A stretch of DNA of 26,005 nucleotides from a virus (Duplodnaviria > Heunggongvirae > Uroviricota > Caudoviricetes). Below, one piece after another: positions 3,165-23,064 of the stretch. Position numbers and translations under genes: made by a program. The notes beneath the pieces were generated by a model. That model was not told the DNA's origin. It saw only the letters and a program-made list of their open reading frames with translations, and did no database searches. Location: IMG/VR virus record IMGVR_UViG_2703718840_000008; one strand, 5' to 3'. The number at the start of each line of letters is the position of its first letter. Position 1 is the stretch's first letter.

Positions 3165-3878
3165 TCATTCCATTTCGAAATCATCAATCCTCACTTCAAG
3201 CTCCAGACTGGTCGTAAAACCATTATCCGGGCTTACGGTATGCGTCAGAGTCGTAATGGTCCATTCCGCATCATCTATCGGCTGTTTAAAGCCACTGACT
3301 TTCACTGGCATTTCCGTGTAGAGATCTGCCCGCCCTTCCGCCAGTTGTAACGAGAATGACGCAACGCCGCGTTGCAGGCGTTCCCACTGCATTTTCGCCG
3401 CTCGTTCGGCGTTGCTCCGGTTGGCATAAGTGCGATTAAGTACCAGCACGTTTTCATCCGTACCCACCAGGTAATCGCCCTGCTTCGCTTCCGGCTCTTT
3501 CTTCTGCTTCTTAGTCCTGCGCTTACGCTTCACCGTGGTGCTTTCTTTCTTCGCGGGTTCGCGGGTATGCAACCAGCTGGCAATTACGCCCGTGTAGGCT
3601 CCGCGATCTGCCAGGGTAAAGCGGTGACTGTCGCCGTCCTTACGTGTGATAGTGATAACCGGTAGTGGTTTACCGCTGGCGCTTTTACCCTGTCCCTGCC
3701 GGATGAATAACAGATTGCCATTTTTCACCGACGCAATAGCACCGTACTGGCGCGCCAGCCGCATCAGAAAACTGCCGTCACTCTCATTGGTCTGGTCTAT
3801 ATGCTCCACGGGTTTATCCGACAGGTCTTCACCCAATGCCATCTTCAGTTTGTGCCGCGCAGATATTTCCTTCACCAC
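3165..3878 (-). pseudogene. D: Tail protein D, C-terminal fragment (N-terminal ~150 aa missing)
   Basis: 237-aa ORF resembling the middle and C-terminal parts of P2 gpD (387 aa). The reading frame is closed by a stop at 3942-3944 and the track start at 3878 is a GTG; no gpU gene lies between it and the tape-measure ORF. Confidence 0.7.
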
Positions 3879-5836
3879 TTCCCCAACGGTGGTCTTGTGC
3901 CACGATTTTTCACGGCGGGTAGTTTTGCCTTTGCGGCCTCTTTACTGACAATGCCGAGTTTCTCCAGCAACCAGGAAACGCCGGATTTCAGGGAGTCCAG
4001 CGGATGCATGACCATATTCAGCCCTTCCGCCAGTGCCTCCCCGAATCGCCGCCCCATTGCCGCTGCACTCTGCAGTTCGGCAGAGGTCGACTTAACGGGC
4101 GTCAGCAGATCAGTAAACCAGCCCCACAGCGCCTGCACTTTGTCGCCAATCCACTGGAACACAGGCTTAAGCGGTTCGAACGCTGCACTGATGGGACCTG
4201 CCGCCGCTTTGAATCCTTCCACCACGCCACCAAGAAATGCGGTGATGGGTTGCCAGTATTTCCAGACAACCAGTGCCACACCCGCCAGTGCAGTAACCAC
4301 AAGACCTATCGGACTAAGCAGAGCACCTAACAGACCAGATACGGCATACAGGGCAACGCGCAACATCGCCAGCGGACCGGATGCCAGTACTCGCAGCACC
4401 GTGCCTGCGGCAGCCAGCCCGTCGCGTAGTGCTGCCAGTGGATTCATAAACATCACAGCAACCGCACGTAAACCGGATAATCCAGACCGCAACAGTGCAA
4501 CCGGCGCACCTGCTACAGTTTTCAGGACATTTCCCGTCAGTGATGCCGTGCGGCGCAAAGACGACAACGGAGCAGTAAGTAAGCCTGCGGCGTTGCCCGA
4601 TGAAGCAAGCCCGCGTCGCAGCACTGCCAGTGGAGCGCCAGCCAGCCAGGACAACGCGCTGCTGGTTCGTGTTACTGCTGCCGTAACGGAAGGTAACGTT
4701 TTGATGCCCAGCACAGAGAATCCCAGACGGATGACTGCCAGCGGCCCCAGCACTGCAGCCAGCGCCACAGCCAAGGTGCCGAGGCCTACGGTAACCGCAG
4801 CCACAACAGCCGCTACTTTCATCAGTGTGCCCGTCAGTTCCGGGTTAGCTTCGACCCAGCGACGCAACGCTCCCGTAACGCTTTTCACCGTGTACAGAAT
4901 ATCCATCAGCGGCTGGCGCAGCGTTTCGCCCAGGCTGCTGAAGGTATTCTGCGCTCCGGTTTTAACCAGCAACCACTGAGCAGAAAGTGAGTCCTTGTTG
5001 ATGTCGGATTCTTTCTGCATGGAACCGAGCGCATCATTGCCCGCTGTCAGTTTTAGCTGGCGCTGTAGTTCCGGCAGGTTGTTTGCCAGTTTCGCCGCGT
5101 CATCGCCAAACTCTTTACCAAACAACATGGTCATGGCAGACAGACGCTTGTCCTGCGGCAGTGCGTTCACCTTCTCCAGCACACGCTGGATAGTTCCCAT
5201 CGCATCCTTCGTCATCTGCTTTTCAATCACTTCAGGATTGAGTTTCAGCAGATTCATCCCTTCAAAGAAACTCTTGCTTTGCATGGTGGCAATGGACAAT
5301 TCACGCACCATCGCGTTTGCTGCACTGGCTGCAACCTCCGGCGCAGCGCCCAGTGTCAGAAAGGTGGAACCCAGCGCCGCCGCTTTACGATAATCCAGAC
5401 GATCAGCCACACCGCCCAGGCGTTGCATGACATCAATGATGTCTGCCCCTTTCGACAACCACTGACGGTAAGCTGTACCTCCGGTGAGTGCCGGACGTTC
5501 CCGCAGCCGGGTAATGTCAGCAGGCAAAGGAGTATCAGCCCAGCGGCGTAAATCCTCGTTCTCACGTTTCAGTTCCTCGATCCGGTGTTGTCGTTGTCTC
5601 AGCAGTGCGCTGGTCTGTTCTGCTTCGGCATAGAGCCGCGCCTGCTCCCGGTTATTGGTTTCAGTCAGAATGGACAGACCGATCAGCTGGCTGTTTTTCT
5701 TCGTCAGTTCCTGCGCTTTACTTTTCAGCGCCGCGCGCTGCGTTTCGATGGTGTGGCTGGCGCTGTTAAGCCGCCACGACTGCCAGCCCAGCGCAACGAG
5801 TGCCAGCGCCACCACTACTGCCAGCGCACGCGTCAT
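3872..5836 (-). pseudogene. Chimeric ORF: Rz/LysB-like i-spanin N-terminus fused in frame to the C-terminal part of tail tape-measure protein gpT
   Basis: First ~130 aa have a TM helix, coiled coil and the ENEDLRRWADTPLP motif typical of Rz/LysB spanins; the rest is Ala/Gly/Leu-rich repeat sequence typical of tape-measure proteins. Start overlaps the endolysin stop (ATGA). Sheath, tube, baseplate and fibre genes expected between lysB and T are absent. Confidence 0.7.
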
Positions 5837-6544: not shown

Positions 6545-6547
6545 AAT

Positions 6548-6751
6548 TCAGTCCCATAGCTGGACGGTCTGCACGGTGGTGGTTGTCGGTATGTCCGGCA
6601 GCTCCACCTGCAACCCGTGAGGTAAAAAAGGGCCGTATTCGGCAAGCCCCGGATTTGCCTTCAGTACCTGCTCCGTGACACCCTGCGTGCGCCCGTAATG
6701 ACGCCAGCAAAGCGCGTCCACCGTGTCATACTGATGCGCACGCACTTTCAT
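6548..6751 (-). CDS. X: Tail protein X (LysM-like)
   Basis: 67-aa ORF MKVRAHQYDTVDALCWRHYGRT...ANPGLAEYGPFLPHGLQVELPD, recognised as P2 gpX family (67 aa). Confidence 0.85.
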   Translation of the reverse strand: MKVRAHQYDTVDALCWRHYGRTQGVTEQVLKANPGLAEYGPFLPHGLQVELPDIPTTTTVQTVQLWD

Positions 6752-7215
6752 CAGATAAGCTCCACTGTGCAGTGCGGCGCATCCTGCACCCGGCTGATGG
6801 CCCAGCGGGCGTCACGCCACAAATCACCGCTTGCTTCCGCCAGTTCCTCGCCCCGCTTCACACCGGATGCCGTGGCGTCATAGTCCTGATAACGCTCGTT
6901 GAGCATGGCGCGTGCCCAGCAGTAAACCGCGTTGAAATAGTGATGAATGCGCTCACTTTTGCCGTCCAGCTGTTCCGCCGGAACCTCAGCCAGCGACACA
7001 TACCCCAGCATCTGCTGACGTCTGCGAAACTCATACAGCTCTGCGTTGACCTCCGAAATTGCCGACAGCGCAACCTGCTTTAAACGCGGCTGCGTCACCG
7101 TGCCGTCAGTGCGCATGACACAGCGAAACTCCGACAGGTCCACATCAGGCCAGAACGGCGTATTTCTGATGATTTCCGCCTGTTCCGGTGCCTGTTCTGG
7201 CGCAACAAACTTCAT
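6751..7215 (-). CDS. L: Head completion/stabilisation protein gpL
   Basis: ORF between M and X as in P2; start placed at the ATG at 7215 (MKFVAPEQ...) preceded by AGGAGA. The track ORF extends to 7278. Confidence 0.75.
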   Translation of the reverse strand: MKFVAPEQAPEQAEIIRNTPFWPDVDLSEFRCVMRTDGTVTQPRLKQVALSAISEVNAELYEFRRRQQMLGYVSLAEVPAEQLDGKSERIHHYFNAVYCWARAMLNERYQDYDATASGVKRGEELAEASGDLWRDARWAISRVQDAPHCTVELI

Positions 7216-7310
7216 GCTGCTTTCTCCTGAAATAAAGGACGGTGGACGGGGTTTTGATGTGGCAGTGCCTTTCGCCACCCCGTGCCGCCCGTGCGCGGGG
7301 GCACGTTCTG

Positions 7311-7961
7311 TCAGCGGCTGTCATTGCGCAGTCTGCGCTCCAGCTGCTGTTTGTCTTTTTTCACGCCACAGCGGGGATCGAGCTGTAACGCATGGTTGAG
7401 ATGATTAAGGGCGGAAGCCGGATTGCTTTCACTCAGGACAGCGCCAATCGCTTTATGCAGACGCGCCCGTGACTGGTCCGGCATATCCAGACCGTCTGTC
7501 AGTTCCAGCGTCTGCAGCAACAGATCAGCATCAAAGCCGATGGCGGCAAGCATTGCGCTCTGCGCTGCGTCTGCCATTTCCTCTGCCAGCACGGTCTGCA
7601 CGTTGCGGTTACCCAGCGGCATCACCCAGCCATGACGCAGGGCATGACGCCCGATCTCCAGCGCCCCGGCATAATCTCCGGCATCAATGCGCCACAGCAT
7701 CACGTACATCAGTACGTCATCCTGCTGTGCGCCTCCGGCAGCCAGGACACCCTCCGCCCAGGCGGCGTACTTCGGCAGCAGCTCCACTTTGATTTCCGCT
7801 TTTTTGACCGTGGACTGAACGCCCTTGAGACGGCGGCGGTCTTCCGCCAGTTGCAGCAGCATCAGGTCATAGCCCGACGCGTGGCGAACACTGCCGCCCT
7901 CGCGGGCGGCCTGTTCAGCCTGAACGCGCAGGCGATGCTGCCGTGCGGGACTCAGGCTCAT
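7311..7961 (-). CDS. M: Terminase small (endonuclease) subunit gpM
   Basis: 216-aa ORF at the position of P2 gene M between N and L; start overlaps the region just after the N stop. Confidence 0.8.
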   Translation of the reverse strand: MSLSPARQHRLRVQAEQAAREGGSVRHASGYDLMLLQLAEDRRRLKGVQSTVKKAEIKVELLPKYAAWAEGVLAAGGAQQDDVLMYVMLWRIDAGDYAGALEIGRHALRHGWVMPLGNRNVQTVLAEEMADAAQSAMLAAIGFDADLLLQTLELTDGLDMPDQSRARLHKAIGAVLSESNPASALNHLNHALQLDPRCGVKKDKQQLERRLRNDSR

Positions 7962-7964
7962 GGT

Positions 7965-9020
7965 TTATGCTCCGGCTTCTGCGGCGGTGCTGAAGTCGCC
8001 AATCTGGATGTTTTCCACCAGTGCTGTGCAGCGGTAGTCCTCAACCACATAGGCTTCGTTAACGGATTCAAAGTTTTCAATCCGGTCACGTTTCGGGTTG
8101 TCGATAACTGAACGGCGGCGGGTGTCTTCCTGCCAGTAGATGGACAGGTTATCCAGACGGGTGATCAGCAGCGCATTCGGCGGGAAGAACGGCGCACGCA
8201 CGGCCTGCAGGCCACCCATGCGTTTCTGGCTGATGATCATATCGGCAGCCAGTTTTTCACTGTTTTCCTGCTCTTTGTTGACCAGCGGGAAATACTTATC
8301 AGACAACAGTTCACGGCCGCAAATCACCACCAGATCGTCATCGTCCTGGTAGACCACGTCGATAAGCTCATTAACGGCATCCATCACCACGGCGTCCAGG
8401 TTGGCATATTCGCCACCTTTACCGACTTTCACCGCGCCCGGTGTGGTTTCACCGCCCGTGGTGGTGCTGCCCATGACGTGATCCGGTGCATCCTCACGGA
8501 TTTTCTGCAGCCAGCCTTTATTCACATCCTGCAGCAGCGGGTTTTCGCTACGGTTGGAGGTTTTCGCACGCTTCACGCCGTTAAAGCCGATCATGATGCG
8601 GTCCAGTGCCTGACGTTTCACGATGGCGTCACGGATACGCACCTGGAAATCCTGAAACTTCGCCCACAGGTCCAGCTTCGCGTAGGTCAGCACCGTGTCA
8701 AAGTTGGTCTGCTCGCATTTATATTCCACATCGACCATCAGCGTCGGATCGACAGGTTCACGCTCTTTCGCGGTGGTATCAGTGGTTCCGGCAATGGTGC
8801 TGCCAACTCCCAACCCCAGCAGCTGACCGGACTGCTCAGTCACTGGCGTGACGTTAATCAGCGTCAGGAAAGCGGCGGACTGCTGGATCTGGTCTTCCAA
8901 TGTCTGCTGCACGGACGGCTCTACGGTGAACTTGCTGGACAGTTCTTCAACTGCCACACCGTTCAGACGCGCCAGTTGCTGCAGGTAAGCGTTAAAAGCA
9001 AAGCGGGTATTCTTCTTCAT
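7965..9020 (-). CDS. N: Major capsid protein gpN
   Basis: 351-aa ORF; size and position (after scaffold O) match P2 gpN (357 aa). Confidence 0.88.
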   Translation of the reverse strand: MKKNTRFAFNAYLQQLARLNGVAVEELSSKFTVEPSVQQTLEDQIQQSAAFLTLINVTPVTEQSGQLLGLGVGSTIAGTTDTTAKEREPVDPTLMVDVEYKCEQTNFDTVLTYAKLDLWAKFQDFQVRIRDAIVKRQALDRIMIGFNGVKRAKTSNRSENPLLQDVNKGWLQKIREDAPDHVMGSTTTGGETTPGAVKVGKGGEYANLDAVVMDAVNELIDVVYQDDDDLVVICGRELLSDKYFPLVNKEQENSEKLAADMIISQKRMGGLQAVRAPFFPPNALLITRLDNLSIYWQEDTRRRSVIDNPKRDRIENFESVNEAYVVEDYRCTALVENIQIGDFSTAAEAGA

Positions 9021-9036
9021 CAGGTTTTGTGCTCCA

Positions 9037-9870
9037 TCAGCAATTGGTCAGAGTGTCAGCGGGGGCGTTACCACCTGTTGCACGCTGGCGGTAGTCCTGG
9101 CGGCTGTCTTCTTGGCTCAGCTTGTCCACCAGTTCGTTAAAGGCGGTCTGCTGTGCCTGCAGGGCAGTCTCCAGCTCAGACAGGCGTTCTTCCTGCTCAG
9201 ACAGGGATTTTTCGGTGCGCGCACTCAGGTTCTGCTGCTCAGTGGCGACCAGTTCCACGGCCTTATGCACATCAGAGAACCGGGCGTCATCGGACTGCTC
9301 TTTTTTGGTGAACAGCGCCGTGACACGGGCAAACAGGGACGGCTTGTCCTCCTGGATTTCTTCCAGTTCGATCACCGTTTCCTCTGCGGCGGTAAAGAGA
9401 TTGGCGGGATTTTGCTTGCGGTTTGCCAGCGGGTTATGGGCTGCACTGGCGCTGAATGCCAGCATTTCAGTGCCCAGGCTGGCAGGGTCATCAGTGGCAG
9501 CCAGCCCGACCAGGTAGGCTTTGCCCGTATCAGCAAACTTTGGGCTGACTTCCATAGAGGTGAATAATTTCTGGCCTTTTTTCACTAGCTCCACCAGGGA
9601 CTCTGTTGGCTCAACGTCGGCATACAGCGCCATCTTGCCTGCCAGCGGACCTTCCGTGATTTCTTCAGCAAACAGCGCCGTCACCTTGCCGTAGCGGTTA
9701 AAGGTGCTGTCCGGCAGATAAGACTTGATGTGCTCAAGGTTAATCAGCGCGGTATACACCGCCGGGTTGTAGCTGGCTGCCATCTGTTCCAGCCATTCAC
9801 GCTGGATTTCGCGTCCGTCGGTGGTGGCACCTTCCACCCCGATGCGAAAACGCTTTGCTTTCACTGTCAT
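9037..9870 (-). CDS. O: Capsid scaffolding protein gpO
   Basis: 277-aa ORF with acidic coiled-coil C-terminus, divergent from P as in P2 (O about 284 aa). Confidence 0.85.
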   Translation of the reverse strand: MTVKAKRFRIGVEGATTDGREIQREWLEQMAASYNPAVYTALINLEHIKSYLPDSTFNRYGKVTALFAEEITEGPLAGKMALYADVEPTESLVELVKKGQKLFTSMEVSPKFADTGKAYLVGLAATDDPASLGTEMLAFSASAAHNPLANRKQNPANLFTAAEETVIELEEIQEDKPSLFARVTALFTKKEQSDDARFSDVHKAVELVATEQQNLSARTEKSLSEQEERLSELETALQAQQTAFNELVDKLSQEDSRQDYRQRATGGNAPADTLTNC

Positions 9871-9948
9871 GAGCCGTGCTCCGTTAGAAAAAACTTACTG
9901 GAGCCTTATGGTTGCGGCGATGGGGGCAGTGAAACAATGCGCGGTATT

Positions 9949-9966
9949 TGTACCGACAACCACACA
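9949..9966. promoter_or_regulatory. Candidate Ogr-binding element (TGT-N12-ACA) of a late promoter in the O/P divergent region
   Basis: tgt accgacaaccac aca lies about 45-65 bp upstream of the P start codon, matching the TGT-N12-ACA dyad described for P2/186 late promoters. Confidence 0.45.
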
Positions 9967-10012
9967 AACCGCAGGCGGGGAAAGCCTTCATTCAAGGCTG
10001 TAGGTTTGTGCC

Positions 10013-11779
10013 ATGAACACCACACTGACACCCGCAGATCTCGATCCCCGTCGGCAGGCCATGCTGCTGTACTTTCAGGGATACCGCGTAGCCCGCATTG
10101 CTGAAATGCTGGGCGAGAAAGTTGCAACCGTTCACAGCTGGAAAAAACGCGACAAGTGGGGTGACTATGGGCCGCTGGACCAGATGCAGCTCACCACCGC
10201 CGCACGCTACTGCCAGCTCATCATGAAGGAGCACAAAGAAGGGAAAGATTTCAAAGAGATTGACCTGCTGGCGCGCCAGTCTGAGCGCCACGCGCGGATC
10301 GGCAAGTTTAACAATGGCGGCAACGAAGCCGACTTAAACCCTAACGTCGCCAACCGCAATAAAGGCCCACGCCGTCAGCCGGAAAAGAATGTTTTCACCG
10401 ATGAGCAGATTGAGAAGCTGGAAGAAATCTTCCATTCCTCCATGTTCAACTACCAGCGCCACTGGTGGGAAGCCGGAAAAACCAACCGCATCCGCAACCT
10501 GCTGAAGTCTCGCCAGATCGGCGCGACCTTCTATTTTGCCCGTGAAGCCCTGATTGACGCCCTGCTTACCGGACGCAACCAGATTTTCCTTTCTGCCAGT
10601 AAGGCTCAGGCCCACGTCTTTAAACAATACATCATCGACTTCGCCAAAGAAGTGGAGGTGGAGCTGAAAGGCGATCCGATGGTGCTTCCTAACGGGGCCA
10701 CGCTTTACTTCCTCGGCACCAATGCCCGCACGGCCCAGAGTTACCACGGCAACCTGTATCTGGATGAATATTTCTGGATACCGAAATTCCAGGAGCTGCG
10801 CAAAGTGGCTTCCGGTATGGCTATTCACAAAAAATGGCGACAAACCTATTTTTCCACGCCATCCAGCCTGACACACAGTGCTTATCCGTTCTGGTCCGGT
10901 GCGCTGTTCAACCGTGGGCGCAACAAAGCTGACAAGGTGGACATCGACCTGTCCCACAGCAATCTGGCCCCCGGCCTGCTGTGCGCAGACGGGCAATACC
11001 GCCAGATAGTCACCGTGGAAGATGCGGTGCGCGGCGGCTGTAACCTGTTCGACCTCGACCAGTTGCGCATGGAGTACAGCCCGGACGAATACCAGAACCT
11101 GCTGATGTGTGAGTTCGTGGACGATCTCGCGTCCGTGTTCCCGCTCAGCGAGCTGCAGGCGTGCATGGTGGACAGTTGGGAAGTCTGGACCGACTTTCAT
11201 GCACTGGCGCTGCGCCCGTTTGGCTGGCGCGAAGTGTGGATCGGTTATGACCCGGCAAAAGGTACGCAGAACGGCGACAGTGCCGGATGCGTGGTGGTGG
11301 CTCCGCCAGCCGTGCCGGGTGGTAAGTTCCGCATTCTTGAGCGTCACCAGTGGCGCGGGATGGACTTCCGCGCCCAGGCTGACGCCATCAAAAAACTCAC
11401 CGAACAGTACAACGTTACGTATATCGGTATCGACTCGACCGGCGTTGGTCACGGGGTTTATGAGAACGTGAAAGCGTTCTTTCCTGCCGTCCGGGAGTTT
11501 GTCTATAACCCCAATGTTAAAAATGCCTTGGTACTCAAGGCCTACGACATTATCAGCCACCGCCGTCTGGAGTTTGACGCCGGACACACTGACATTGCGC
11601 AGTCATTCATGGCAATCCGTCGCGCAACCACCGCCAGCGGCAACCGCCCGACCTATGAAGCCAGCCGCAGCGAAGAAGCCAGCCACGCCGATCTGGCCTG
11701 GGCAACAATGCACGCACTGTTTAACGAACCGCTGCAGGGCGAATCCGCCAATACCAGCAATATTGTGGAGATTTTTTGA
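10013..11779 (+). CDS. P: Terminase large (ATPase) subunit gpP
   Basis: 588-aa ORF; length and position match P2 gpP (about 590 aa); stop overlaps the Q start (TGATG). Confidence 0.9.
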   Translation: MNTTLTPADLDPRRQAMLLYFQGYRVARIAEMLGEKVATVHSWKKRDKWGDYGPLDQMQLTTAARYCQLIMKEHKEGKDFKEIDLLARQSERHARIGKFNNGGNEADLNPNVANRNKGPRRQPEKNVFTDEQIEKLEEIFHSSMFNYQRHWWEAGKTNRIRNLLKSRQIGATFYFAREALIDALLTGRNQIFLSASKAQAHVFKQYIIDFAKEVEVELKGDPMVLPNGATLYFLGTNARTAQSYHGNLYLDEYFWIPKFQELRKVASGMAIHKKWRQTYFSTPSSLTHSAYPFWSGALFNRGRNKADKVDIDLSHSNLAPGLLCADGQYRQIVTVEDAVRGGCNLFDLDQLRMEYSPDEYQNLLMCEFVDDLASVFPLSELQACMVDSWEVWTDFHALALRPFGWREVWIGYDPAKGTQNGDSAGCVVVAPPAVPGGKFRILERHQWRGMDFRAQADAIKKLTEQYNVTYIGIDSTGVGHGVYENVKAFFPAVREFVYNPNVKNALVLKAYDIISHRRLEFDAGHTDIAQSFMAIRRATTASGNRPTYEASRSEEASHADLAWATMHALFNEPLQGESANTSNIVEIF

Positions 11780-12807
11780 TGGGTAAGAGTGAGAAGAACC
11801 GCGCTGCGGCGACGAAACAGATCCAGCTTAAAAGCCAGACTACAGCCGAAGCATTCAGCTTCGGCGATCCCGTTCCTGTTCTGGACCGCCGAGAACTGCT
11901 GGACTATGTGGAATGCGTACAGATGGACCGTTGGTATGAGCCGCCCGTCAGCTTTGACGGACTGGCGCGCACCTTCCGCGCTGCCGTGCATCACAGTTCC
12001 CCGATTGCAGTAAAGTGCAACATTCTGACCAGTACCTATATCCCTCATCCGCTGCTCAGCCAGCAGGCTTTTTCGCGTTTTGTGCAGGACTATCTGGTAT
12101 TTGGTAACGCCTACCTGGAGAAACGCACGAACCGATTCGGTGAAGTTATCGCCCTTGAGCCTGCGCTGGCAAAATACACCCGACGCGGGTTAGACCTGGA
12201 TACCTACTGGTTTGTGCAATACGGTATGACAACCCAGCCGTATCAGTTCACGAAAGGCAGCATTTTTCATCTGATGGAACCGGACATCAACCAGGAGATC
12301 TACGGCCTGCCCGGTTATCTTTCTGCCATTCCGTCAGCCCTGCTCAACGAGTCCGCCACGCTGTTCCGCCGCAAGTATTACATTAACGGTAGCCATGCAG
12401 GCTTCATCATGTATATGACCGATGCCGCGCAGAACCAGGAAGATGTGAACAACCTCCGCAACGCAATGAAAAGCGCCAAAGGCCCTGGCAACTTCCGCAA
12501 TCTGTTTATGTACTCGCCTAACGGCAAAAAGGACGGACTTCAGATCATCCCGTTGTCAGAAGTCGCAGCGAAAGATGAATTTCTTAACATCAAGAACGTG
12601 AGTCGTGATGACATGATGGCCGCGCATCGTGTTCCGCCACAGATGATGGGGATTATGCCGAATAATGTTGGGGGTTTTGGGGATGTGGAGAAGGCTAGTA
12701 AGGTTTTTGTGATAAATGAATTAATTCCTTTGCAAAAACGATTTATGGAAATAAACGCATGGCTCGGGGAGAAACTTATAGAATTTTCTCCATATGAGCT
12801 TAACTAA
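11779..12807 (+). CDS. Q: Portal protein gpQ
   Basis: 342-aa product from the ATG at 11779 (track ORF begins at a TTG 3 nt upstream); matches P2 gpQ in size (about 344 aa) and position. The last ~40 codons are markedly AT-rich. Confidence 0.88.
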   Translation: MGKSEKNRAAATKQIQLKSQTTAEAFSFGDPVPVLDRRELLDYVECVQMDRWYEPPVSFDGLARTFRAAVHHSSPIAVKCNILTSTYIPHPLLSQQAFSRFVQDYLVFGNAYLEKRTNRFGEVIALEPALAKYTRRGLDLDTYWFVQYGMTTQPYQFTKGSIFHLMEPDINQEIYGLPGYLSAIPSALLNESATLFRRKYYINGSHAGFIMYMTDAAQNQEDVNNLRNAMKSAKGPGNFRNLFMYSPNGKKDGLQIIPLSEVAAKDEFLNIKNVSRDDMMAAHRVPPQMMGIMPNNVGGFGDVEKASKVFVINELIPLQKRFMEINAWLGEKLIEFSPYELN

Positions 12808-12815
12808 AATATTAG

Positions 12816-12845
12816 TTGCCAGTACCGTATTGTTGCTACTGGCAA
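12816..12845. terminator. Hairpin between convergent Q and the RloC-like gene (possible bidirectional terminator)
   Basis: 9-bp inverted repeat ttgccagta (12816-12824) / tactggcaa (12837-12845) with 12-nt loop; no strong T-run, so weak. Confidence 0.3.
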
Positions 12846-12856
12846 TTGCAATAAAA

Positions 12857-15193
12857 TTACAAATATGTATTGCTATGTAGAGATGTGTTTATTCCATCTT
12901 CTATCTCAATTTTTGACGAAGCATACTCATCATTCGCACTATCATCAATATCAAACTCATCTTGTAGATGAAGTGACTCATTTAACGGTTTATAAAACTC
13001 ACCCATCATCATTTTGTAATGGGCAGTATGCTCACTACACTCAAATATCTTCTGAAAAACAATTAAATATTTTTGCACAGACTCCGTATCTAAATTCATA
13101 TAAAGATCATCACCTGCAAAATGAGAACCATCATTAATCCATGACACTAAAGATTTAAATATGATTTTTTCATCACCATAAAAATGACACTCAAGCTTCC
13201 TAATATCCATCCCTCCTAATATCTTAAAGTAATTCTCCAAAATCCTTCGCATTGTATTTTGTATAGTATTATTATTAATATCTGTTCTTCTCAATTCGCA
13301 CCAGAGCAAATCATAAGACGTTTTTATTGGGTTTGATTCGCACTTTTCAAGATATGAGACCTTCCCTTTTTTCCTTACAATCCAAAAAGTCTCCTCTTTC
13401 ATTGCTTGATTACCGGATCTTTTAGTATTAAAAGTCAACTCTTTATGAAAATAAATATTATGCGTAAGGAATATAATTTGCTTAATATTTCCTTCATCCT
13501 TACGAACATCCTCCATTAAATCTTTAATCAACGAACTTACAATAAACAGAATATCACTATCTAAACTTGAAATTGGATCATCAAATACTACAACACGATC
13601 ATCTAAAACACCTGATGCATTATCACTCCCTCTAACAAGACTATAAAAATACAAAAAAGTGATAAATGTCTTTTCTCCCTCGCTAAGAGTTGTACGAGCA
13701 TTATCTCCACTATCTCTCACTATCATATAATGCTTTTTATCTTCGGAGGGTTTTAAGTAAAAATTTTTGAAGCCATAAGAATCCAGAATCTTGTTAATTT
13801 TTGTAATAGTTGGAAGAGTACTGGTTTTATTAGACTCAATTGCCTCAATAGCCGAAGCATTTAACATTAACTTCTTTTTGTCTTCCTCTAACCCAGATTT
13901 AAGTCCTTGTAACCTCCTACTAAATTTATCAGATTCGCTACGGTAAGAAGTTATTTCAGACTTTAACTCCACCTTTACGATATATGCCCATATCTGATTA
14001 GAAAGATTACTAACCTCTACCTTTCTATTACTGTGTATTTTGTTATTATTATCTATCAATAGATTTGAATCATTCAAAAAAGAAATAAAATCATCAACAA
14101 CTTCACTTAAGTCACTAAAATGAACTGATTCACTTAAAAAATTGCGTTTGTTTTTTGCTAATTCAAAATTCTTGTTTAATTCAGATAATACTATCTTAGC
14201 CTTATCCTCAAATACTTCATAATTTATGAATGGAGATTTAATCGCCCTTATATCATCTATCGCCTGCAAGATATTATTAAGTTGATGTTCATATTGTAAA
14301 ACCAATGCATCGATTTCTCTTTTTTTTAACTCATATGTTTTATCAAAATATGATGATAGATTATCAAATATATTATCATTTACATCCTGCTGGCAGAATG
14401 GGCACTTGGGATTAGATTTACTGAAATATGTTAAACCTTCCTTAACCCAATCACTGTTATTGAGCATTGTAATTAAGTCTGAAACACTAACGTCTTTTTT
14501 CCCTAGAATACGCTCACTCCAAATCTCCCTACTCAAAATATCATCTATCCCATTGAAGGATGGAATTGTAATTGATACATGTGATGTCAATTCAGTAGAA
14601 AAAACAATTTTTGCTTTCTCAATTAGCTCTGCTATTGAGCAAACTTCTGATGTGTTATTTTCATACTCAGCCAACACTCTAGCTTTAAATTTTTCACTAC
14701 TATTCCTTAATCCCTCAAAAGCCTTTGAGAACACATTATCATGTTTTATTTTTTGCTTCCAACATGAATCTTTAAAAGATTTTTCATGGTCTTCGATTTG
14801 TTTAACAACGCCTAATATATTATCACCACCATCTATTAGCTTTTCCTTTGCTATAATAGATTCTATTAGCTTATTTTTTTCTTCTTCAAGAGATATTAGT
14901 TTCTCTTCATCCTCCTTAAGATCGCTACCAAGGGTAAATACACCTTTAATTTTATCTTGACTAAAATTTCTTTCAACAAAATCTTTATTATATACGTAGC
15001 TTATTAAAGATATATTATTTTTCCATTTAATCGGACATGTTGGATATTGTTCAGGGTCATTAATAATTTTACTTATAGTTGTTTTACCTGCACCATTAGC
15101 TCCATATAAATAGTTAAATTTAGAAAGCCCATGTAAAAGCTGAGTAGGGCCATTATATGAGCCTACTTTGTCAATAACTACCTCTTCAATCAT
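12857..15193 (-). CDS. RloC/PrrC-like ABC-type ATPase (AAA_13-like) with Rad50-type CxxC zinc hook; candidate anticodon nuclease / abortive-infection protein
   Basis: 778-aa ORF, ~30% GC. N-terminal Walker A GANGAGKTT; long predicted coiled-coil region containing CPFC; ABC signature-like LSEGEK; Walker B VVVFDDPISSLD; H-loop-like FLTHN; C-terminal ~200 aa with an RRILE (R-x3-E) motif and downstream His residues, reminiscent of the PrrC/RloC nuclease triad. GAGGA RBS upstream. Confidence 0.6.
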   Translation of the reverse strand: MIEEVVIDKVGSYNGPTQLLHGLSKFNYLYGANGAGKTTISKIINDPEQYPTCPIKWKNNISLISYVYNKDFVERNFSQDKIKGVFTLGSDLKEDEEKLISLEEEKNKLIESIIAKEKLIDGGDNILGVVKQIEDHEKSFKDSCWKQKIKHDNVFSKAFEGLRNSSEKFKARVLAEYENNTSEVCSIAELIEKAKIVFSTELTSHVSITIPSFNGIDDILSREIWSERILGKKDVSVSDLITMLNNSDWVKEGLTYFSKSNPKCPFCQQDVNDNIFDNLSSYFDKTYELKKREIDALVLQYEHQLNNILQAIDDIRAIKSPFINYEVFEDKAKIVLSELNKNFELAKNKRNFLSESVHFSDLSEVVDDFISFLNDSNLLIDNNNKIHSNRKVEVSNLSNQIWAYIVKVELKSEITSYRSESDKFSRRLQGLKSGLEEDKKKLMLNASAIEAIESNKTSTLPTITKINKILDSYGFKNFYLKPSEDKKHYMIVRDSGDNARTTLSEGEKTFITFLYFYSLVRGSDNASGVLDDRVVVFDDPISSLDSDILFIVSSLIKDLMEDVRKDEGNIKQIIFLTHNIYFHKELTFNTKRSGNQAMKEETFWIVRKKGKVSYLEKCESNPIKTSYDLLWCELRRTDINNNTIQNTMRRILENYFKILGGMDIRKLECHFYGDEKIIFKSLVSWINDGSHFAGDDLYMNLDTESVQKYLIVFQKIFECSEHTAHYKMMMGEFYKPLNESLHLQDEFDIDDSANDEYASSKIEIEDGINTSLHSNTYL

Positions 15194-15326
15194 CCTCTAA
15201 TCCTCAAAAAACAGATTAATCCTATCAAATCAATGATAATAGAAGACATTACTTACCTAATTACAAGGTGATCATTTATACAGCTGTGAATAAATCAGGC
15301 TAATCATCTATTTGTCATAACGCGCG

Positions 15327-15345
15327 CTCGTATCCCCGCCACGCC
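15327..15345. other. Candidate cos site (cohesive-end sequence) of the P2/186-like phage
   Basis: Reverse complement reads GGCGTGGCGGGGATACGAG followed by CGCGCG, matching the conserved GGCG(A/T)GGCGGGGA start of the P2 and 186 cohesive ends as I recall them; lies in a GC-normal island between two AT-rich cargo cassettes, oriented toward Q. Confidence 0.5.
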
Positions 15346-15897
15346 TGCCCGCTTTATGCAGTGATTTTCATGCACCTGCATGACATAAGCGAAAGCCCGC
15401 CAGTTCTGGGGGGCCTCAGCAAAAACGATCCTCAAACGATCATGCAATTTCATGCAGCATAGTCATGCACAGCCAAGAGAAGTGAAAATCCGTATCTGAA
15501 TGACCACTTAAAAAACGAAATATACGGGTTTACAAACATGGAGGTTCACTGTGAGCGAAGAGCGGAAGTTGCCTTAATTAGGTTACATGGGGGACAAATG
15601 TTACTAGCATGATTATGCGGGATACTTACAATACCACGCCTTAATTGCTTTGTTATCCCACCAGAAAGTCATGGAGCCGCAACTGATAAGAAAATTGTTG
15701 TAAAAGTGCCAGTTGGTTACTCTGAATTTCTGCTTAGCCAGGAGAGTGCCTGCGTTGTCAGCGAATGCGTAAGTTGATCCTTCAATGCAGAAATAGTTCA
15801 ATTTATTAAACAACACTCCTGGCGGGATTAACGCCGCATCTATAATGCGTGAGAGTGTGCATGCGCAATTTCAGCAAAAAAATTGAAAATAGCGCTA

Positions 15898-16869
15898 CTA
15901 ACTTCCCTTTATTTTTAGTTCGTTAAAAATATCTTCGATTACCAATCCATTTTTAATTAAATGCTGCACAATATTTTCATATTCTTTGAAATTGTCAATA
16001 TGCAAGCCATGATCTTTTTCTTTAGCAATTCTCGTGATCACATGTACGCTATCTATATAATCAATCTTATTTTTAAGAGCATTGAGCAAACTTATACTTG
16101 GATTTAAAGTTGAGATTAGTTTACCAAACTCGGTTTGTAACTCTTTGGATTGATGAGTATTAATATAATCTTCAATAAAAGCATCAAAATCTCCTTGCAA
16201 CTCAACTTTAAGGTTTGCTATATCCTTCATAATATTTTCTAACTCAGAAGAGTATGGCCGACCATGTTTAAAATCGAATAAAAAAAGATTTGCTTTCTCA
16301 ATACATTCGCAAATATAAAAAACTGTATAAAGGGAATATTTTTGCTTAACTTTTAATTTTCCATAGGCGTAGTGAACCAAAAGATGCTTAGCATTAATAA
16401 CATTTTTATTTTTTGAAAGTTGATTGTTAGTTGCAGGCGGATAAATTACCACATCAACATTATCTAAATTTTGAAAAGTTTTTAAAATAAGAGCCTCAAC
16501 CTTATTCCAATCGAGGCCCCCATTACCACAGCCTAAAGGTGGTATTGATATTGATGTAATTTTTTTTTCATCTATAATTTTTGCTAAAGATTCAAGGCCT
16601 TGCGAGATAAAATCATATGTTGATTTTTTTCTCCAACTATCTTTAGTGGGAAAGTTTACAATTATTTTTCCCTTTTCCTCTACAATTAAAACCTGTCCAA
16701 TTTTCATTGTACCAGTGGCGCATGCTCTCTTATAAACTTCGAAATTATAGGGAAAAGTTTCTTTAAAAGCCAAAGCAATACCCTTTCCCATGACTCCTTG
16801 GCAGTTTACAGCATTCACAAGAGCTTGCGATGTAGAGTTTAGAAGATTTCCGCTTGCATACTTAATCAT
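15898..16869 (-). CDS. darG: DarG-like antitoxin (N-terminal macrodomain, ADP-ribosyl hydrolase)
   Basis: 323-aa ORF; N-terminal ~150 aa show macrodomain hallmarks (GNLL, ALVNAVNC, GVMGKGIALAF, IPPLGCGNGGL); starts 4 nt after the darT stop, giving the toxin-then-antitoxin operon order. Confidence 0.75.
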   Translation of the reverse strand: MIKYASGNLLNSTSQALVNAVNCQGVMGKGIALAFKETFPYNFEVYKRACATGTMKIGQVLIVEEKGKIIVNFPTKDSWRKKSTYDFISQGLESLAKIIDEKKITSISIPPLGCGNGGLDWNKVEALILKTFQNLDNVDVVIYPPATNNQLSKNKNVINAKHLLVHYAYGKLKVKQKYSLYTVFYICECIEKANLFLFDFKHGRPYSSELENIMKDIANLKVELQGDFDAFIEDYINTHQSKELQTEFGKLISTLNPSISLLNALKNKIDYIDSVHVITRIAKEKDHGLHIDNFKEYENIVQHLIKNGLVIEDIFNELKIKGS

Positions 16870-16873
16870 AGAA

Positions 16874-17455
16874 TTAGAACATATAAGTGTTGATCGTTAT
16901 CAATATACTTAATCCTTGTTGTTTTATCAACCCTTCAACATATTTTTTTTCGTTATCATTTTTGACAAAGATGCAATGGAAATTTTTCGGCTCGACCGTT
17001 ACACTTGATAAACACTCAGCCATACATACAGATTTGCATTCTGCATTTTTATAATCCCTTATATTCATTAGCTCCCAGTCAATTTGGGCCATTCCTTGTT
17101 CATAATCTAAGAGGTCTATAACAGAACTGGTGGATAATGGATGTTTAGGTATAACTTTCCAACCATTTTCTTTGGCAAATGCCCGACAAACCGAAATAAT
17201 ACAAAATGATTTTTCCTTATGATCTTTCAGGACTCTTCCATCAAATGGATTCTTAGTAAAGAAATGAAAAGGAACCATTGTTTGCAAATTTAATGCTTCG
17301 CGACCTGTTATTATTTCACCGTCGGCCACATCAACAAACTCACCTTTTACTGATGCACGAGATCTTAATCCTGTGTCTAAAATACTAGGTAGATTATCCA
17401 TACATGTTAAATGATAGAGAAGATACTGATCTTCAATTCTTTTCCTTTCGCTCAT
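16874..17455 (-). CDS. darT: DarT-like toxin (DUF4433 ssDNA ADP-ribosyltransferase)
   Basis: 193-aa ORF with YLLYHLTCMDNLPSIL N-terminal motif, MVPFHFF, and a glutamate in CMAECL, matching the DarT family pattern as I recall it; AGGA-type RBS upstream. Confidence 0.72.
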   Translation of the reverse strand: MSERKRIEDQYLLYHLTCMDNLPSILDTGLRSRASVKGEFVDVADGEIITGREALNLQTMVPFHFFTKNPFDGRVLKDHKEKSFCIISVCRAFAKENGWKVIPKHPLSTSSVIDLLDYEQGMAQIDWELMNIRDYKNAECKSVCMAECLSSVTVEPKNFHCIFVKNDNEKKYVEGLIKQQGLSILITINTYMF

Positions 17456-17922
17456 TTCAACTCATCCTTTCAAATTCGTAAGTCTATTTATAGAACCAAA
17501 CCTCACTGACAGTCAAGGTTTTTAAGATTATTCACATTGCCTTCTGCCTGTCGATCTAATTATTTTCGATTTTTTGGGTATGATTTGGCATTATTGATAT
17601 ACAAGGTAAAACAATTTTTCAGTAGTTTACTGACGCTGAGTGATTACGATTGCTAGCTTGGGAAGGCAATGGCCATAGTGCATGTGCTGAACAAAATGAA
17701 AAAGGCAGGGACATTCTGGTCTTCCCCATGAGTATGGATTTTCATTGCATCGATGGGTATGAGCAACGTCCCCTTGATTAAGGATAGCGTTGCATCGTCC
17801 CGTTGAACTCACAACACAAATCGTACAATCACTTATCAAAATGGCCGCCCACCTTACGCCTCGTTTCACTCGCTACCCAAACTAGCCCCCATCAGAATGA
17901 ATCCTCCTGGGGGCAACGTTTC

Positions 17923-18156
17923 TTAATGCAGCCAGCTGTCGTCTTCCCACACCTTCTGCATAATTTTCATCACTTGTTTTCTTTCTTCATCCAGTTGCAG
18001 TCCGGTCAGTTCCACACCGTTAGAGCTACCTTTACGGATACGAATTACCGTTTTGGGATATAGGGGGCGCAGATTGCGGTAAAGCTCGGATTCAAGGGCG
18101 TCCAGGGTAGACTGGCTAATCTTCTGCTCTTTATCGATCATTATTTCAATGCGCAT
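17923..18156 (-). CDS. DinI-like protein (equivalent to the C-terminal domain of 186 antirepressor Tum)
   Basis: 77-aa product from the ATG at 18156 (MRIEIMIDKEQKIS...ESELYRNL...KIMQKVWEDDSW) resembling DinI; GAGGTG RBS overlaps the stop of the upstream ORF. The 101-aa track ORF is an upstream extension. Confidence 0.7.
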   Translation of the reverse strand: MRIEIMIDKEQKISQSTLDALESELYRNLRPLYPKTVIRIRKGSSNGVELTGLQLDEERKQVMKIMQKVWEDDSWLH

Positions 18157-18166
18157 AAAAGTCACC

Positions 18167-18355
18167 TCAACTGATGACATCCATTGAGCGGTTGTATTCG
18201 TGGGTTCTGATTTTTGCCATGAGTTCATCTGTCAGTTCAGAAACCCACTGCAGGGCCAGCCCCTTCTCTTCATCACTACACTCACTAGCCGCTACAAGCT
18301 TAAGAAAAAAATCAATGCGCTGGAGCTTCAAAGACTCCAAAAAATAGTCCTGCAT
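18167..18355 (-). CDS. Small protein, possible N-terminal part of a Tum-like antirepressor (SOS-controlled)
   Basis: 62-aa ORF from the ATG at 18355 preceded by AGGAGG; translationally coupled to the dinI-like ORF; a LexA box lies 45-60 bp upstream. Confidence 0.5.
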   Translation of the reverse strand: MQDYFLESLKLQRIDFFLKLVAASECSDEEKGLALQWVSELTDELMAKIRTHEYNRSMDVIS

Positions 18356-18398
18356 TTTTCCTCCTATGACACCACAAGCAATACTGTAAATATAACCA

Positions 18399-18414
18399 CT
18401 GTTTATATTTACAG
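18399..18414. promoter_or_regulatory. LexA (SOS) box upstream of the tum-like operon
   Basis: cACTGTttatatttACAGta matches the CTGT-N8-ACAG consensus with flanking A/T; a second half-site-like CTGT lies at 18384-18387. Confidence 0.7.
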
Positions 18415-18508
18415 TATATAATAATCTTACTGATGTAAAACGTTTTTTTACGTTCATCAGCCTGATATGCCTGGTATTATTAAGAGCACGAATTGTTAAC
18501 CCGCGTAA

Positions 18509-20923
18509 TTAATACAGGTTTCGCCACTTATCATCTTCCTGCAAACGCTGGTTCCGATAGAAGATACGCAGGCCTGCTCCTGACGGAATACTGCCGCCGC
18601 GAAGGAGTAAATCGACCTCTTTCTCGCTGCCATCAAATCCTCTGGACTTCAGTTCATAGACGAGCTGCTGTCGTTGATGGTCTGTAATTCGCTGTTTGTA
18701 GTCTCTACGCCGTTTCGGCTTCACCAGGCGTAACCTTGCTGCCAGTTCCCGGCGCTCTTTTTTGCTCATACTGTGCAGGTAATCGTGCAACTCCTTGTCA
18801 TCCATGCGGGTAATGTCCGTTCTGGTGTCCCCATCAGCTGATTTGTCTTTCCCTTGTTGGTTCAAATTTTCAGCAAGGGGATAGTTATTGCCACGAGTCC
18901 AAGGGGCGCAAGCGCCCTGTTCGGCTGCCGCCTCCTGAACGTCAACGGCCTTACGAACCATTTTCCACTTCACTGCATGAGTGCAGATCTTGCCCTCTGC
19001 AATGGGTGACCAGATGCCATAAATACGAATACCGTGATCGCCATAGGCGGTCGGCTCTTCGTTAATTTCATAAGCTGTTCTGATAAGGTGATATTTGCGG
19101 GGAACCAGCACGCCGCCCTGCTTCATGATGTAGGTCGCAAAACAGCCAGCATCAGCAGCAGCCAGGATGGCATCAAGGCGTGGGTTATCCAGTACCGGCG
19201 CACCTGCTTTTATGTCACCCTGCTGCCTTGCCGCCTGACCAGCCAGCAATCGCAGTTCACGATAAGCCTGACGCCCCGGAATACCAAAGAAGCGGAATTG
19301 CTGAACACGATGCAGAGACGCCCAGGCATTCACGTATTCAGCGTTATCACGCAGGGATTTACCCGTTTCCTTGCTGATCTCGCCAGCCAGACCACGCCCG
19401 TCAATGTTCTTACTGATATATTTCGCGATGTAGCTTGTCGGCGTTCCTTTGCGCGGGTTAATCAACTCAGACTTAAAGCGCGGCCCCGTGTTATTGCCCA
19501 GCTCCTCGCGGTCTTCACGGATGGCAAACTTACGCAGTAATGCAGTGATGGCGCGGCGGTCTTTTTTGCGCATAAAACACAACAGGTGCCAGTGAACTGT
19601 ACCGTCATGATGTGGCTCAGCCACCCGCACGCCATACCACCGCAATCCGGCTTTGTGCATCGCCTTACGAAATGCAGCAAACATGCCGACCAGATAATCA
19701 CTGCTTTGTCTTACCGTCGCATTTGTCCAGGTCGGGTTGGGCCTGCCGTTATTTAGCGTGGAATGGAAACGTGACGGACAGGTGATGGTGTAGAAAACGG
19801 CGCAGTCACCGCGCATTTCCGCGATAAGCTCCAGGCCTTTAACACAGGCCATCATCTCATTGCGGCGATGCGCAGGGTTGCTGCTGCTGGCGTTTACCAC
19901 ATCCTCCATGTCCAGCGTGTCGCCGTCTTCGTTCACCAGTTCATGAGAACGAAAAAACTCCAGCGACTTACGGCGCTGCTCACGTTTATGCATCACGGCT
20001 TCATAGCTGACATAGGGAGATGCTTTTTTGCTGACCAGGCAGACAGCACGCAACTGCTCTTCCCGCCATTCGCAACGCATCTTCCATAATTTCCGGTACC
20101 ACCAGTCAGCGCACAACATACGCGCCAGCGAACCCGGAATGAGTTCATAGGGCACGGGTTTACGGCGGTTTCTTTTCCGGCGGAGTTGCTCAAACGCAGG
20201 CGGTATGACATCCAGTCGCAGGGTTTCTGCTGCCACCTTTTCCCATGTCTTGCGGATTTCTTCAGGCTTAACGTCATCGGTGGCATACAAATCGCCACAA
20301 GCTGCATCAAGGCACATGCTCATATGCGCAGCAACAAGGGTGGACAGGCGTTTCACCTGATCCTGACTCATTTCAGGCAGAATCAGCAGGCCGTCCAGCC
20401 CTTCATGGCTTGCCATAAAGCGAAAAGAAGTGGATAGCTGACTGTCGCGTACATGCTCCAGCCGTTCCAGACATGGCTTAATCGTCTCACGCAAATAGCG
20501 GGAATAAGCCTTTGGCCTGCCAAGGCTGCTGAAGTATTCAATACGTTGCATCAGCGGCTTGCTGATATGGGAAGGCTGGGCATTGACGTCCGCCAGAATG
20601 ACCATATCTGGATTAAAACGCTGCTGCTCATGCGCCAGCTTTGCCCGACTAATGAGCTTATCCTGCTCCATTTCGCGCTGGACAGGATCACGGGATTCAT
20701 TAAAGAAATAACGCTCCCAGACCTGATCACTCAGTGCCTCGCGGCGCAGCTGTTCCTGCTCGTTATCGGCAGCGTACAGAGTGATCAGGTTTGAAAGCGC
20801 AGAAACCGGCGCAACTTCCGCCGGGTCCAGATAAGGGTTAATGGCCTTTTTCGGGCTGTTCCATGAGAACGATGCGGCAGCCTCGTTAAAGCCGCAGCAG
20901 TTGTTCATATCGGCATGGCTCAT
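18509..20923 (-). CDS. A: Replication initiation protein gpA (rolling-circle initiator)
   Basis: 804-aa ORF at the position and scale of P2 gene A (761 aa), downstream of dam and the early genes; start overlaps the dam stop (ATGA). Confidence 0.85.
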
Positions 20924-21777
20924 GCACGTACTCCGTACACGGCAGAACTATCCACGCCACGCGAATAATCAAATCCCACCCAGCAGCGCGGCCCGGAAAC
21001 AGCAATGATTTCTGTTGCTGATTTACCCTCGCCAGCTGCCACACCGATGCTGCGTTTTGCCTTGATGTAGTGGTGAGTAAAATTGCGATACAGCGAACGG
21101 ATCAGGGATGTGTCACTGTTAGAAACAATGACCGGATGTCCTTCTGATGACCGATGTTCAAGAACAGATGCCAGGTGATACTGGTCATCTTCAGTGAAAC
21201 CATCAGTGTGATAGCCGGAAAACTTACCGTCATACGGCGGATCGCAATACACCACATCCCCCGCCTTCAACATCGCCAGCGTTTCATCAAAGCTGGCGCA
21301 GATAAACGTTGCTCGCTGGGCCTTTTCTGCAAATGCGCGAATTTCTTTTTCAGGGAAATACGGATTTTTATAATTACCGTAGGGAATGTTGAAATGCCCG
21401 CTCTTGTTATAGCGACATAAACCACGGTAACCGTGACGATTGAGATACAGGAAATATACCGCTTTCATGAAATCAGTAATTTCAGTGGAGTAATTAAACT
21501 CCTGCCTTATGTTGTAATAAGCCACCTCCCTGTTTGCGATCTCAAATAAAACTCTGGCGCGAGATATAAACGATTCACAATCAGCAGCAACCTTTTTATA
21601 GAGGTTGATTAAATCAGGATTAATATCCGCAACCAGATAGCTGGGGTAATCCGTCTCCATCATCACAGCACAGGAACCCGCGAAAGGTTCAACCAGTCGC
21701 GGGCCAGCAGGAAGGTGTTTTTTCAGTTCGGACATAATGGCGGTTTTATTTCCCGCCCATTTCAGGATGGTGCTCAT
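20920..21777 (-). CDS. dam: DNA adenine methyltransferase (Dam-like, orphan)
   Basis: 285-aa product from the ATG at 21777 ([11 protein letters not shown]...) with the catalytic DPPY motif; no adjacent restriction endonuclease gene; start overlaps the stop of the upstream zinc-finger ORF. Confidence 0.85.
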
Positions 21778-22001
21778 ACAGCACCTCCGTTGTAATGTTT
21801 GCCTTTCAGCTCTGCGATTTCCTGACAGGTAATGCAAAGCTGCACCCCCGGAATGGCACGGCGGCGTGCTGGCGGAATTGGCGCTTCACACTCAACGCAA
21901 AGCACGCGGGACACGCCCGGCGTTTTGGCACGGGCAGCACGGATATGACGTTGGCGTTCTTCTTCAACTCGCTGCTGTACGAGATCCATTGCATCAGCCA
22001 T
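21774..22001 (-). CDS. TraR/DksA-family zinc-finger protein
   Basis: 75-aa ORF with a C-terminal C4 zinc finger (CVECEAPIP...CITCQ) typical of phage TraR-like proteins; stop-start overlap with neighbours. Confidence 0.7.
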   Translation of the reverse strand: MADAMDLVQQRVEEERQRHIRAARAKTPGVSRVLCVECEAPIPPARRRAIPGVQLCITCQEIAELKGKHYNGGAV

Positions 22002-22240: not shown

Positions 22241-22301
22241 TTCTCCTGAATTTAGATAAAGGGATGCCCGGCGGGTTTACGCCATTAATTTCATTAGTTG
22301 G

Positions 22302-22643: not shown

Positions 22644-22665
22644 ACTTCATATCCCCCAAACGCAG

Positions 22666-23057: not shown

Positions 23058-23064
23058 AAGCACC

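Follow-up and report, generated by a model that had tools for sequence, protein, structure and literature searches.

A probable RloC-type anticodon nuclease gene carried as a single-gene cassette beside cos in a P2/186-like prophage

The prophage sequence of IMG/VR record IMGVR_UViG_2703718840_000008 was analysed here as one window of 26,005 nucleotides (nt), in which a single unbroken open reading frame (ORF) of 778 amino acids (aa), starting with ATG, lies on the minus strand at 12857..15193. This gene is probably that of an RloC-type anticodon nuclease, which occupies, as a self-contained single-gene cassette, the slot between portal gene Q and the cohesive-end site (cos) of a P2/186-like prophage. 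By each sequence criterion applied, the encoded protein is a member of the RloC family.

RloC has been defined as a protein of 658-897 aa in which the ABC motifs resemble those of PrrC, a coiled-coil insert bears CX2C at its centre, and the sequence Arg-X3-Glu-X36-52-His lies near the C-terminus, its His often preceded by Ser (Davidov & Kaufmann 2008). It was also reported in that study that RloC is seldom linked to a restriction-modification (R-M) locus. All four sequence features of this definition are present in the 778-aa protein, since it has the ABC motifs, a helical insert with CX2C, a length within the given range, and the C-terminal arrangement R649-X3-E653-X37-S690-H691 (a Glu-to-His spacing of 37 residues). 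The ABC head is split by the helical insert, which is ~360 residues long. The motifs quoted in a preliminary description of this DNA (GANGAGKTT, CPFC, LSEGEK, VVVFDDPISSLD, FLTHN, and RRILE) were all located in the ORF (Table 1), and the Arg-Glu-His triad suggested there was recovered as an Arg-x3-Glu...Ser-His series that is invariant and has the published RloC spacing. Here and in Table 1, residue invariance was judged in an alignment of 37 homologues with 41-66% identity.

The profile search proposed in the preliminary description gave a full-length match to the Pfam family AAA_13 (PF13166; aa 10-718, E=1.6e-163, profile positions 2-713 of 713), whose score of 546.5 bits compares with a gathering threshold of 36. 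The C-terminal end of AAA_13 is recovered by the last 145 residues before the tail alone (E=9e-31), and the AAA_13 model thus covers the C-terminal domain, because those residues match by themselves. In PADLOC, model PDLC04890 of PDC-S06 matches aa 1-734 (E=8e-266); PDC-S06 is a single-gene phage-defence candidate in that database, not a validated defence. The PADLOC PrrC model gives a weaker and only partial match (aa 458-704, E=4e-11). With regard to the extent of the family, 1,120 cluster representatives were found at E<=1e-30, nearly all of them collinear across residues 1-731, and homologues at 42-45% identity bear the IMG label 'wobble nucleotide-excising tRNase'. None of the NCBIfam models matches the RloC-family protein. 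The idea that 734 aa is the normal length of the protein, with the 778-aa form arising by read-through, was rejected: the 734-aa cluster representative is labelled partial, and the RefSeq genomes all have the 2337-bp gene.

No true relative was found among the sequences of solved structures, whether the protein, the family profile, or the C-domain profile was used as the query. An AlphaFold model was compared at the level of the fold; it was built from the alignment and has a mean predicted local distance difference test (pLDDT) score of 80.7. In a Foldseek search with this model, the best solved structures were Rad50 proteins (top E=3.6e-7), followed by SMC heads and then by the defence ATPases AriA, LmuB, and PtuA. 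The C-terminal domain is mostly helical in the model, and tail residues 740-778 are of low confidence. A profile of the hook region ranked two Pyrococcus furiosus Rad50 zinc hooks (6zff and 1l8d; E=0.007) as the top two of 177,635 PDB sequences, with CPFC aligned to the Rad50 CPVC and the flanking helices in register. This profile alignment lends modest but specific support to the putative zinc hook. Of the Rad50-like coiled coil with CxxC at its apex that had been expected, the Rad50-like fold and a helical insert with an invariant CPxC were recovered; the hook itself was modelled at low confidence.

Comparison with characterised systems places the protein closest to RloC of Geobacillus kaustophilus and Acinetobacter baylyi, with which it shares the ABC motifs, a CxxC-bearing helical insert between Walker A and the signature, the C-terminal triad, a length in the range, the usual lack of R-M linkage, and the frequent occurrence as sole cargo of an integrated phage. 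It differs from RloC in that the proteins of its clade have, in addition, an acidic and disordered tail (~44 residues) containing a SAND motif. PrrC, the EcoprrI-linked protein of Escherichia coli, also has an ABC ATPase head and a homologous C-terminal nuclease region, but is ~400 aa long, is devoid of the coiled-coil/hook insert, and is without exception located in a type I R-M operon, by which it is silenced. The protein is not a PrrC, because the insert is present and an R-M operon is lacking: it has 778 aa with an insert of ~360 residues, its gene is flanked by portal gene Q and by cos and the darTG genes, and no hsd genes were found in the 26 kb window. Rad50/SbcC proteins provide the best structural matches and a hook sequence in register, but they are without a C-terminal nuclease domain and are partnered by Mre11/SbcD. 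The protein is not one of these, because it has an extra C-terminal nuclease domain (as predicted) with the triad and no Mre11-type partner, no Mre11/SbcD-type gene being present in the window. Finally, P2 Old and Tin are likewise lysogenic-conversion defence cargo adjoining the cos of a P2-type phage, but lie on the opposite (A) side of cos, and no match to the Old or Tin families was obtained in the Pfam and PADLOC scans.

Table 1. Coordinates of the RloC-family gene, its motifs, and the neighbouring features in the window
Feature	Position	Strand	Remarks
Portal gene Q	11776..12807	+	Pfam Phage_portal; RefSeq 'phage portal protein'; left edge of cargo slot
Hairpin between convergent Q and RloC-family stop codons	12813..12848	both	Candidate bidirectional terminator
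RloC-family gene	12857..15193	-	778 aa; identical to RefSeq WP_061357951 'AAA family ATPase'
Disordered acidic tail, aa 735-778, with SANDE motif at aa 752-756	12860..12991	-	pLDDT 27-36
C-terminal domain, predicted anticodon-nuclease (HEPN-type) module, aa 596-734	12992..13408	-	
S690-H691, His of the predicted triad with Ser before it, within GSHF (aa 689-692)	13121..13126	-	Both invariant
RRILE, aa 649-653, Arg and Glu of the predicted triad	13235..13249	-	R649, R650, E653 invariant
H-switch FLTHN, aa 575-579	13457..13471	-	T577, H578, N579 invariant
Walker B and D-loop VVVFDDPISSLD, aa 534-545	13559..13594	-	D538, D539, P540, S542, S543, D545 invariant
ABC signature LSEGEK, aa 503-508	13670..13687	-	L503, S504, E505, G506, E507 invariant
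Helical (coiled-coil type) insert, aa 93-456, splitting the ABC head	13826..14917	-	75% helix in the AlphaFold model
CPFC, candidate zinc hook, aa 264-267	14393..14404	-	C264, P265, C267, Q268 invariant
Walker A / P-loop GANGAGKTT, aa 31-39	15077..15103	-	G31, N33, G36, K37, T38, T39 invariant in 37 homologues
Cargo-specific upstream region	15194..15320	-	Candidate promoter; GAGGA ribosome-binding site 7 nt before ATG
Conserved cos region	15321..15470	.	88-92% identical to same block in two other P2-like phages; four-way alignment
DarG (15898..16869) and DarT (16874..17455)	15898..17455	-	Defence pair in A-side slot; Pfam Macro and DarT

The distribution of the gene indicates that it moves on its own. 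The segment 12700-15500 shows 100% DNA identity to NZ_AP021895.1 (E. coli strain 2018-11-3CC), and of 5,426 complete E. coli genomes, 21 have the gene, in each case next to the portal gene. Across cos, the genomes inspected differ: DarTG is found in this window, a KAP NTPase in strain D7, and nothing in strain TUM12355. The contents of the two slots thus vary independently of each other, and the RloC-family gene is not part of the DarTG system; a combined system of the two was considered and rejected on the ground of this independent assortment. In an Enterobacter P2-like prophage, the slot between Q and cos contains an orthologue with 62% identity, and 51-52%-identical orthologues stand alone between psu and int in P4-like satellites of E. 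coli and Serratia (L011 1284-3569; L015 6001-8280), so the gene family occupies cos-adjacent hotspots of helper phage and satellite alike. In addition, a 43%-identical relative in Burkholderia lies alone among unrelated chromosomal genes. R-M genes are present neither in the window nor beside the Enterobacter, E. coli P4-like, Serratia, or Burkholderia orthologues, in agreement with the earlier statement that the gene has no R-M partner. That statement formed part of a description of the gene as 'standalone', which stood with respect to R-M but not with respect to the AT-rich island, as the island crosses cos and holds the separate DarT-DarG pair. The cassette comprises a single gene with its own upstream region, extends from ~12763 to 15320 (~2.6 kb), and moves independently of its neighbours.

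The gene has the same length and an intact 778-codon frame in all inspected genomes. Compared with the strain D7 allele, the ratio of non-synonymous to synonymous substitution rates (dN/dS) is 0.13, and 17 of the 18 non-synonymous differences fall in the helical insert, with none in the ATPase head or the C-terminal domain. Judged from these substitutions, the protein is conserved and under purifying selection.

The position of the cassette was defined from both ends. The GC content is 0.28-0.33 over the gene, compared with 0.52-0.60 in the phage backbone, which agrees with the AT-richness noted in the preliminary description, and the gene is part of an AT-rich island from ~12.8 to 17.9 kb (GC 0.28-0.38). 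On the left, homology to relatives is lost at 12740-12762, within the 3′-terminal part of Q; the terminase large subunit gene (10013..11779) lies to the left of, and is convergent with, the RloC-family gene. On the right, the block at 15321-15470 is the sole part of the island common to other P2-like phages. The P2 cos 19-mer does not occur in the window at up to 3 mismatches. Alignment to the circularised P2 end junction places the 19-nt cohesive-end equivalent of a 186-type cos at 15327-15345; the reverse complement of this segment is GGCGTGGCGGGGATACGAG and its P2 counterpart is GGCGAGGCGGGGAAAGCAC, and homology to the P2 right end runs on to 15377. In the four-way alignment, conservation ends a few bases past cos on the Q side, where the cargo-specific sequence starts. 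The gene therefore lies on the Q side of cos, given the alignment-placed cos to its right and this conservation boundary, as had been proposed in contrast to the A-side tin/old locus. In P2 itself, the Q-cos interval is ~170 bp and holds a terminator only, with tin/old on the A side, while Hypoth_Ymh, Abi-alpha, and AIPR proteins are the cargo of this slot in other P2-like phages.

On the A side of cos, TCATGCA occurs four times within ~100 bp (15368-15374, 15440-15446, 15450-15456, and 15463-15469), and the related motifs GCATGA and GTGCATG are found beside these copies in 15346-15470. Repeats of this kind are conserved among other P2-like phages, in part also at the right end of P2, and may be terminase recognition repeats.

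With regard to expression signals, a 20-nt block at 15264-15283 (CTGTATAAATGATCACCTTG) is common to this upstream region and to that of the 62%-identical Enterobacter orthologue, the surroundings having diverged. It contains a candidate -10 element, TATAAA, at 15275-15280, and by its conservation is likely the promoter of the RloC-family gene. A generic consensus scan for promoters and terminators did not exceed shuffled sequence in the number of sites returned, and none of these sites lay in the upstream region. The hairpin between the two stop codons has a predicted RNA folding energy of -19.4 kcal/mol on the minus strand (z=-4.4) and -16.4 kcal/mol on the plus strand (z=-3.3); it was not flagged by the consensus terminator scan because its loop exceeds 8 nt.

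A mechanism may be proposed on the basis of work on Geobacillus RloC. In that protein, Ala at any triad residue leads to loss of anticodon-nuclease activity and toxicity, and hook mutants are hyperactive (Davidov & Kaufmann 2008). The nuclease is switched on by a DNA-dependent ATPase (Klaiman et al.), Zn2+ is inhibitory, and the wobble nucleotide is removed via two successive cuts. By analogy, the nuclease of the 778-aa protein would be held off in the resting lysogen by the zinc hook and the coiled coil. Binding of foreign or broken DNA, particularly of DNA ends, by the ATPase heads, together with ATP hydrolysis, would release the C-terminal nuclease, which would then cut both sides of the wobble nucleotide in one or more tRNAs. 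Such a wobble lesion would resist phage tRNA repair enzymes, translation would stop, and the infection would be aborted, so that sibling lysogens would be protected.

Several points weigh against this reading. The protein was likened to the characterised Geobacillus and Acinetobacter RloC through the published sequence definition. The hook region (~240-280) is modelled with a local pLDDT of only 48-59, and the promoter of the gene is inferred only. Native Acinetobacter RloC is not activated by DNA breaks alone (Klaiman et al. 2012). A literature search found no RloC shown to block any phage in a plaque assay, a 2025 survey enters RloC as 'not tested', and the AAA_13 system of the P2 hotspot was not cloned by Rousset et al.

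An RloC-like architecture could also serve another nuclease specificity, directed at mRNA, rRNA, or non-wobble tRNA sites, or producing a single PrrC-like nick. The protein is only distantly related to the single RloC that has been dissected biochemically, Geobacillus RloC is promiscuous in vitro, and HEPN domains cover many RNase specificities (Anantharaman et al. 2013). On the other hand, both the triad spacing and the collinearity over the whole length are those of RloC, and the match to the PrrC model is confined to the partial one described above; a different specificity is thus considered unlikely.

Another explanation concerns the trigger, which is the sole point at which it departs from the RloC-type mechanism; in all else the two overlap. 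The nuclease might be controlled in trans in the manner of PrrC, being silenced by a host type I R-M system encoded elsewhere and triggered by a phage anti-restriction protein. This arrangement was left open by Davidov & Kaufmann and by Klaiman et al.; E. coli APEC O1, which has a prophage RloC, 'encodes type I EcoK like', and sensing of an anti-restriction protein is known from PARIS in the sister P4 hotspot. In the window, the only gene of this kind is a lone Dam-type methyltransferase with no restriction gene, and the family travels as a single gene among P2, P4, and chromosomal sites across genera. Because the gene travels alone among such sites, a built-in silencer is argued for, and control in trans appears quite improbable.

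It is also very unlikely that the gene serves the P2 and P4 elements themselves, either by excluding rival P2-like phages and satellites or by interacting with cos or terminase. Its location directly beside cos in P2-like and P4-like elements, the restriction of the tail motif to close homologues, several of them located in P2 or P4 elements, and the existence of another P2 hotspot system that guards against P2 relatives would fit such a role. However, the unrelated cargo types of cos-adjacent slots number in the hundreds, and the position of the gene is therefore a property of the hotspot rather than a pointer to function; moreover, close relatives exist outside any phage, and the gene is intact although the prophage is defective. 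That the gene is an inactive passenger, decaying within a decaying prophage that has lost most of its tail module and has an IS fragment just across cos, is hardly credible in view of the intact 778-codon frame of equal length in all inspected genomes, the low dN/dS with zero replacements in catalytic regions, and the retention of every family-invariant residue.

Assuming that the gene encodes an RloC-type nuclease, its acidic tail may set it apart. The tail (aa 735-778) contains 11 Asp/Glu and 2 Lys/Arg in 44 residues. At 49-66% identity, most of 12 close homologues have the SAND[DE] motif, among them the ones placed in P2 or P4 elements, and it is missing from the aligned relatives at 41-45% identity. 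Several close homologues end in D[DE]APF, while the 778-aa protein ends in NTYL; the D[DE]APF ending resembles the acidic tip of E. coli SSB. On the conservation pattern, there is a small chance that the clade of close homologues differs functionally from textbook RloC, the tail being a built-in regulator or a sensor of a phage or host protein. If this were true, phage blocking by an RloC might be demonstrated for the first time with this cassette, and its trigger might be identified.

The genes across cos belong to a separate defence pair. PADLOC identifies DarG (E=1e-80, 323 aa) and DarT (E=2e-36, 193 aa); both are divergent versions, because they score under the NCBIfam equivalog cut-offs. 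Further to the right are a DinI-like gene and then a replication endonuclease gene (18509..20923). The DinI-like gene is flanked by two small minus-strand ORFs, 17627-17869 (80 aa) and 18167-18457 (96 aa), for which Pfam, PADLOC, and NCBIfam gave no match; the 80-aa ORF is located immediately upstream of darT, within the AT-rich island, and lacks RefSeq annotation. Between cos and darG, at the equivalent of 15634-15741, RefSeq annotates an IS5/IS1182 transposase fragment in a near-identical prophage, which corresponds to a 67-aa ORF on the minus strand of the window (15613..15816). The sole methyltransferase gene of the window (20920..21837; Dam-type, D12-class) is also present in the related intact prophage, and no restriction gene adjoins it.

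The prophage is defective (region 3165-5836), with its defence cargo still intact. A chimeric ORF on the minus strand (3872..5836) begins with 128 residues of the LysB N-terminus (100% identical to the intact relative) and continues, in residues 127-645, with the C-terminal portion of the tape-measure protein. The tail, baseplate, and fibre genes have therefore been lost through a deletion whose junction lies near 5454-5457. Another junction, located near 3900, truncates the tape-measure gene at its end, together with gene U and the beginning of gene D. Host genes (ybjM and an Asp-Al_Ex permease gene) lie to the left of the Ogr gene (window 1-2620), and the integrase gene runs past the right end of the window (24797-26005); the window thus spans nearly all of this shortened prophage of about 23 kb. 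Collinearity with the intact relative in strain 2018-11-3CC is confined to 5454-23856 (98.8%).

RloC-family proteins in prophages have been described before. The RloC of E. coli APEC O1 (738 aa) was listed with the flanks 'Phage replication initiation, Capsid' (Davidov & Kaufmann 2008, Table S1), and prophage-borne ABC-HEPN proteins typified by APECO1_4465 were proposed to exclude other phages independently of R-M (Anantharaman et al. 2013). The P2 hotspot was treated as the entire gpA-gpQ interval, with both sides of cos included, and 'AAA_13', annotated as 'RloC-like', ranked fifth among its systems in frequency, occurring 420 times (Rousset et al. 2022). The protein encoded in this window (WP_061357951) and its D7 allele (WP_001741452) both appear in Table S5A of that study. 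The finding is therefore already known, because the exact protein is in that table and prophage-borne RloC has been described since 2008. The preliminary description had suspected a variant not yet characterised; this holds in the experimental sense, but the novelty was overstated, given the accession in Rousset et al. (2022) and the kin described in 2008, 2012, and 2013.

The gene resembles hotspot system #5 and the APECO1_4465 group in its single-gene organisation, and system #5 also in its hotspot and Pfam family. The printed representative of system #5 belongs to another lineage, with 25% identity to the present protein across the first 400 residues; in PADLOC it is matched best by PDLC04886, compared with PDLC04890 here (both PDC-S06). 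Whereas the published hotspot merges both sides of cos, this gene is specifically in the Q-cos slot. Two aspects are mildly new, namely the acidic tail with the SAND motif in close homologues, and the behaviour of Q-cos and cos-A as two separately exchangeable cargo sites.

As a finding, the gene adds little to what has been reported. Its value is practical: the cassette is compact and comes from E. coli, for which phage panels and tRNA assays are mature, and it is a convenient substrate for settling the phage-stopping ability of RloC, its natural trigger, and its tRNA target. In addition, the window offers a clean case of two independently swapping cargo slots that flank cos, and a case of defence cargo outliving its carrier prophage.

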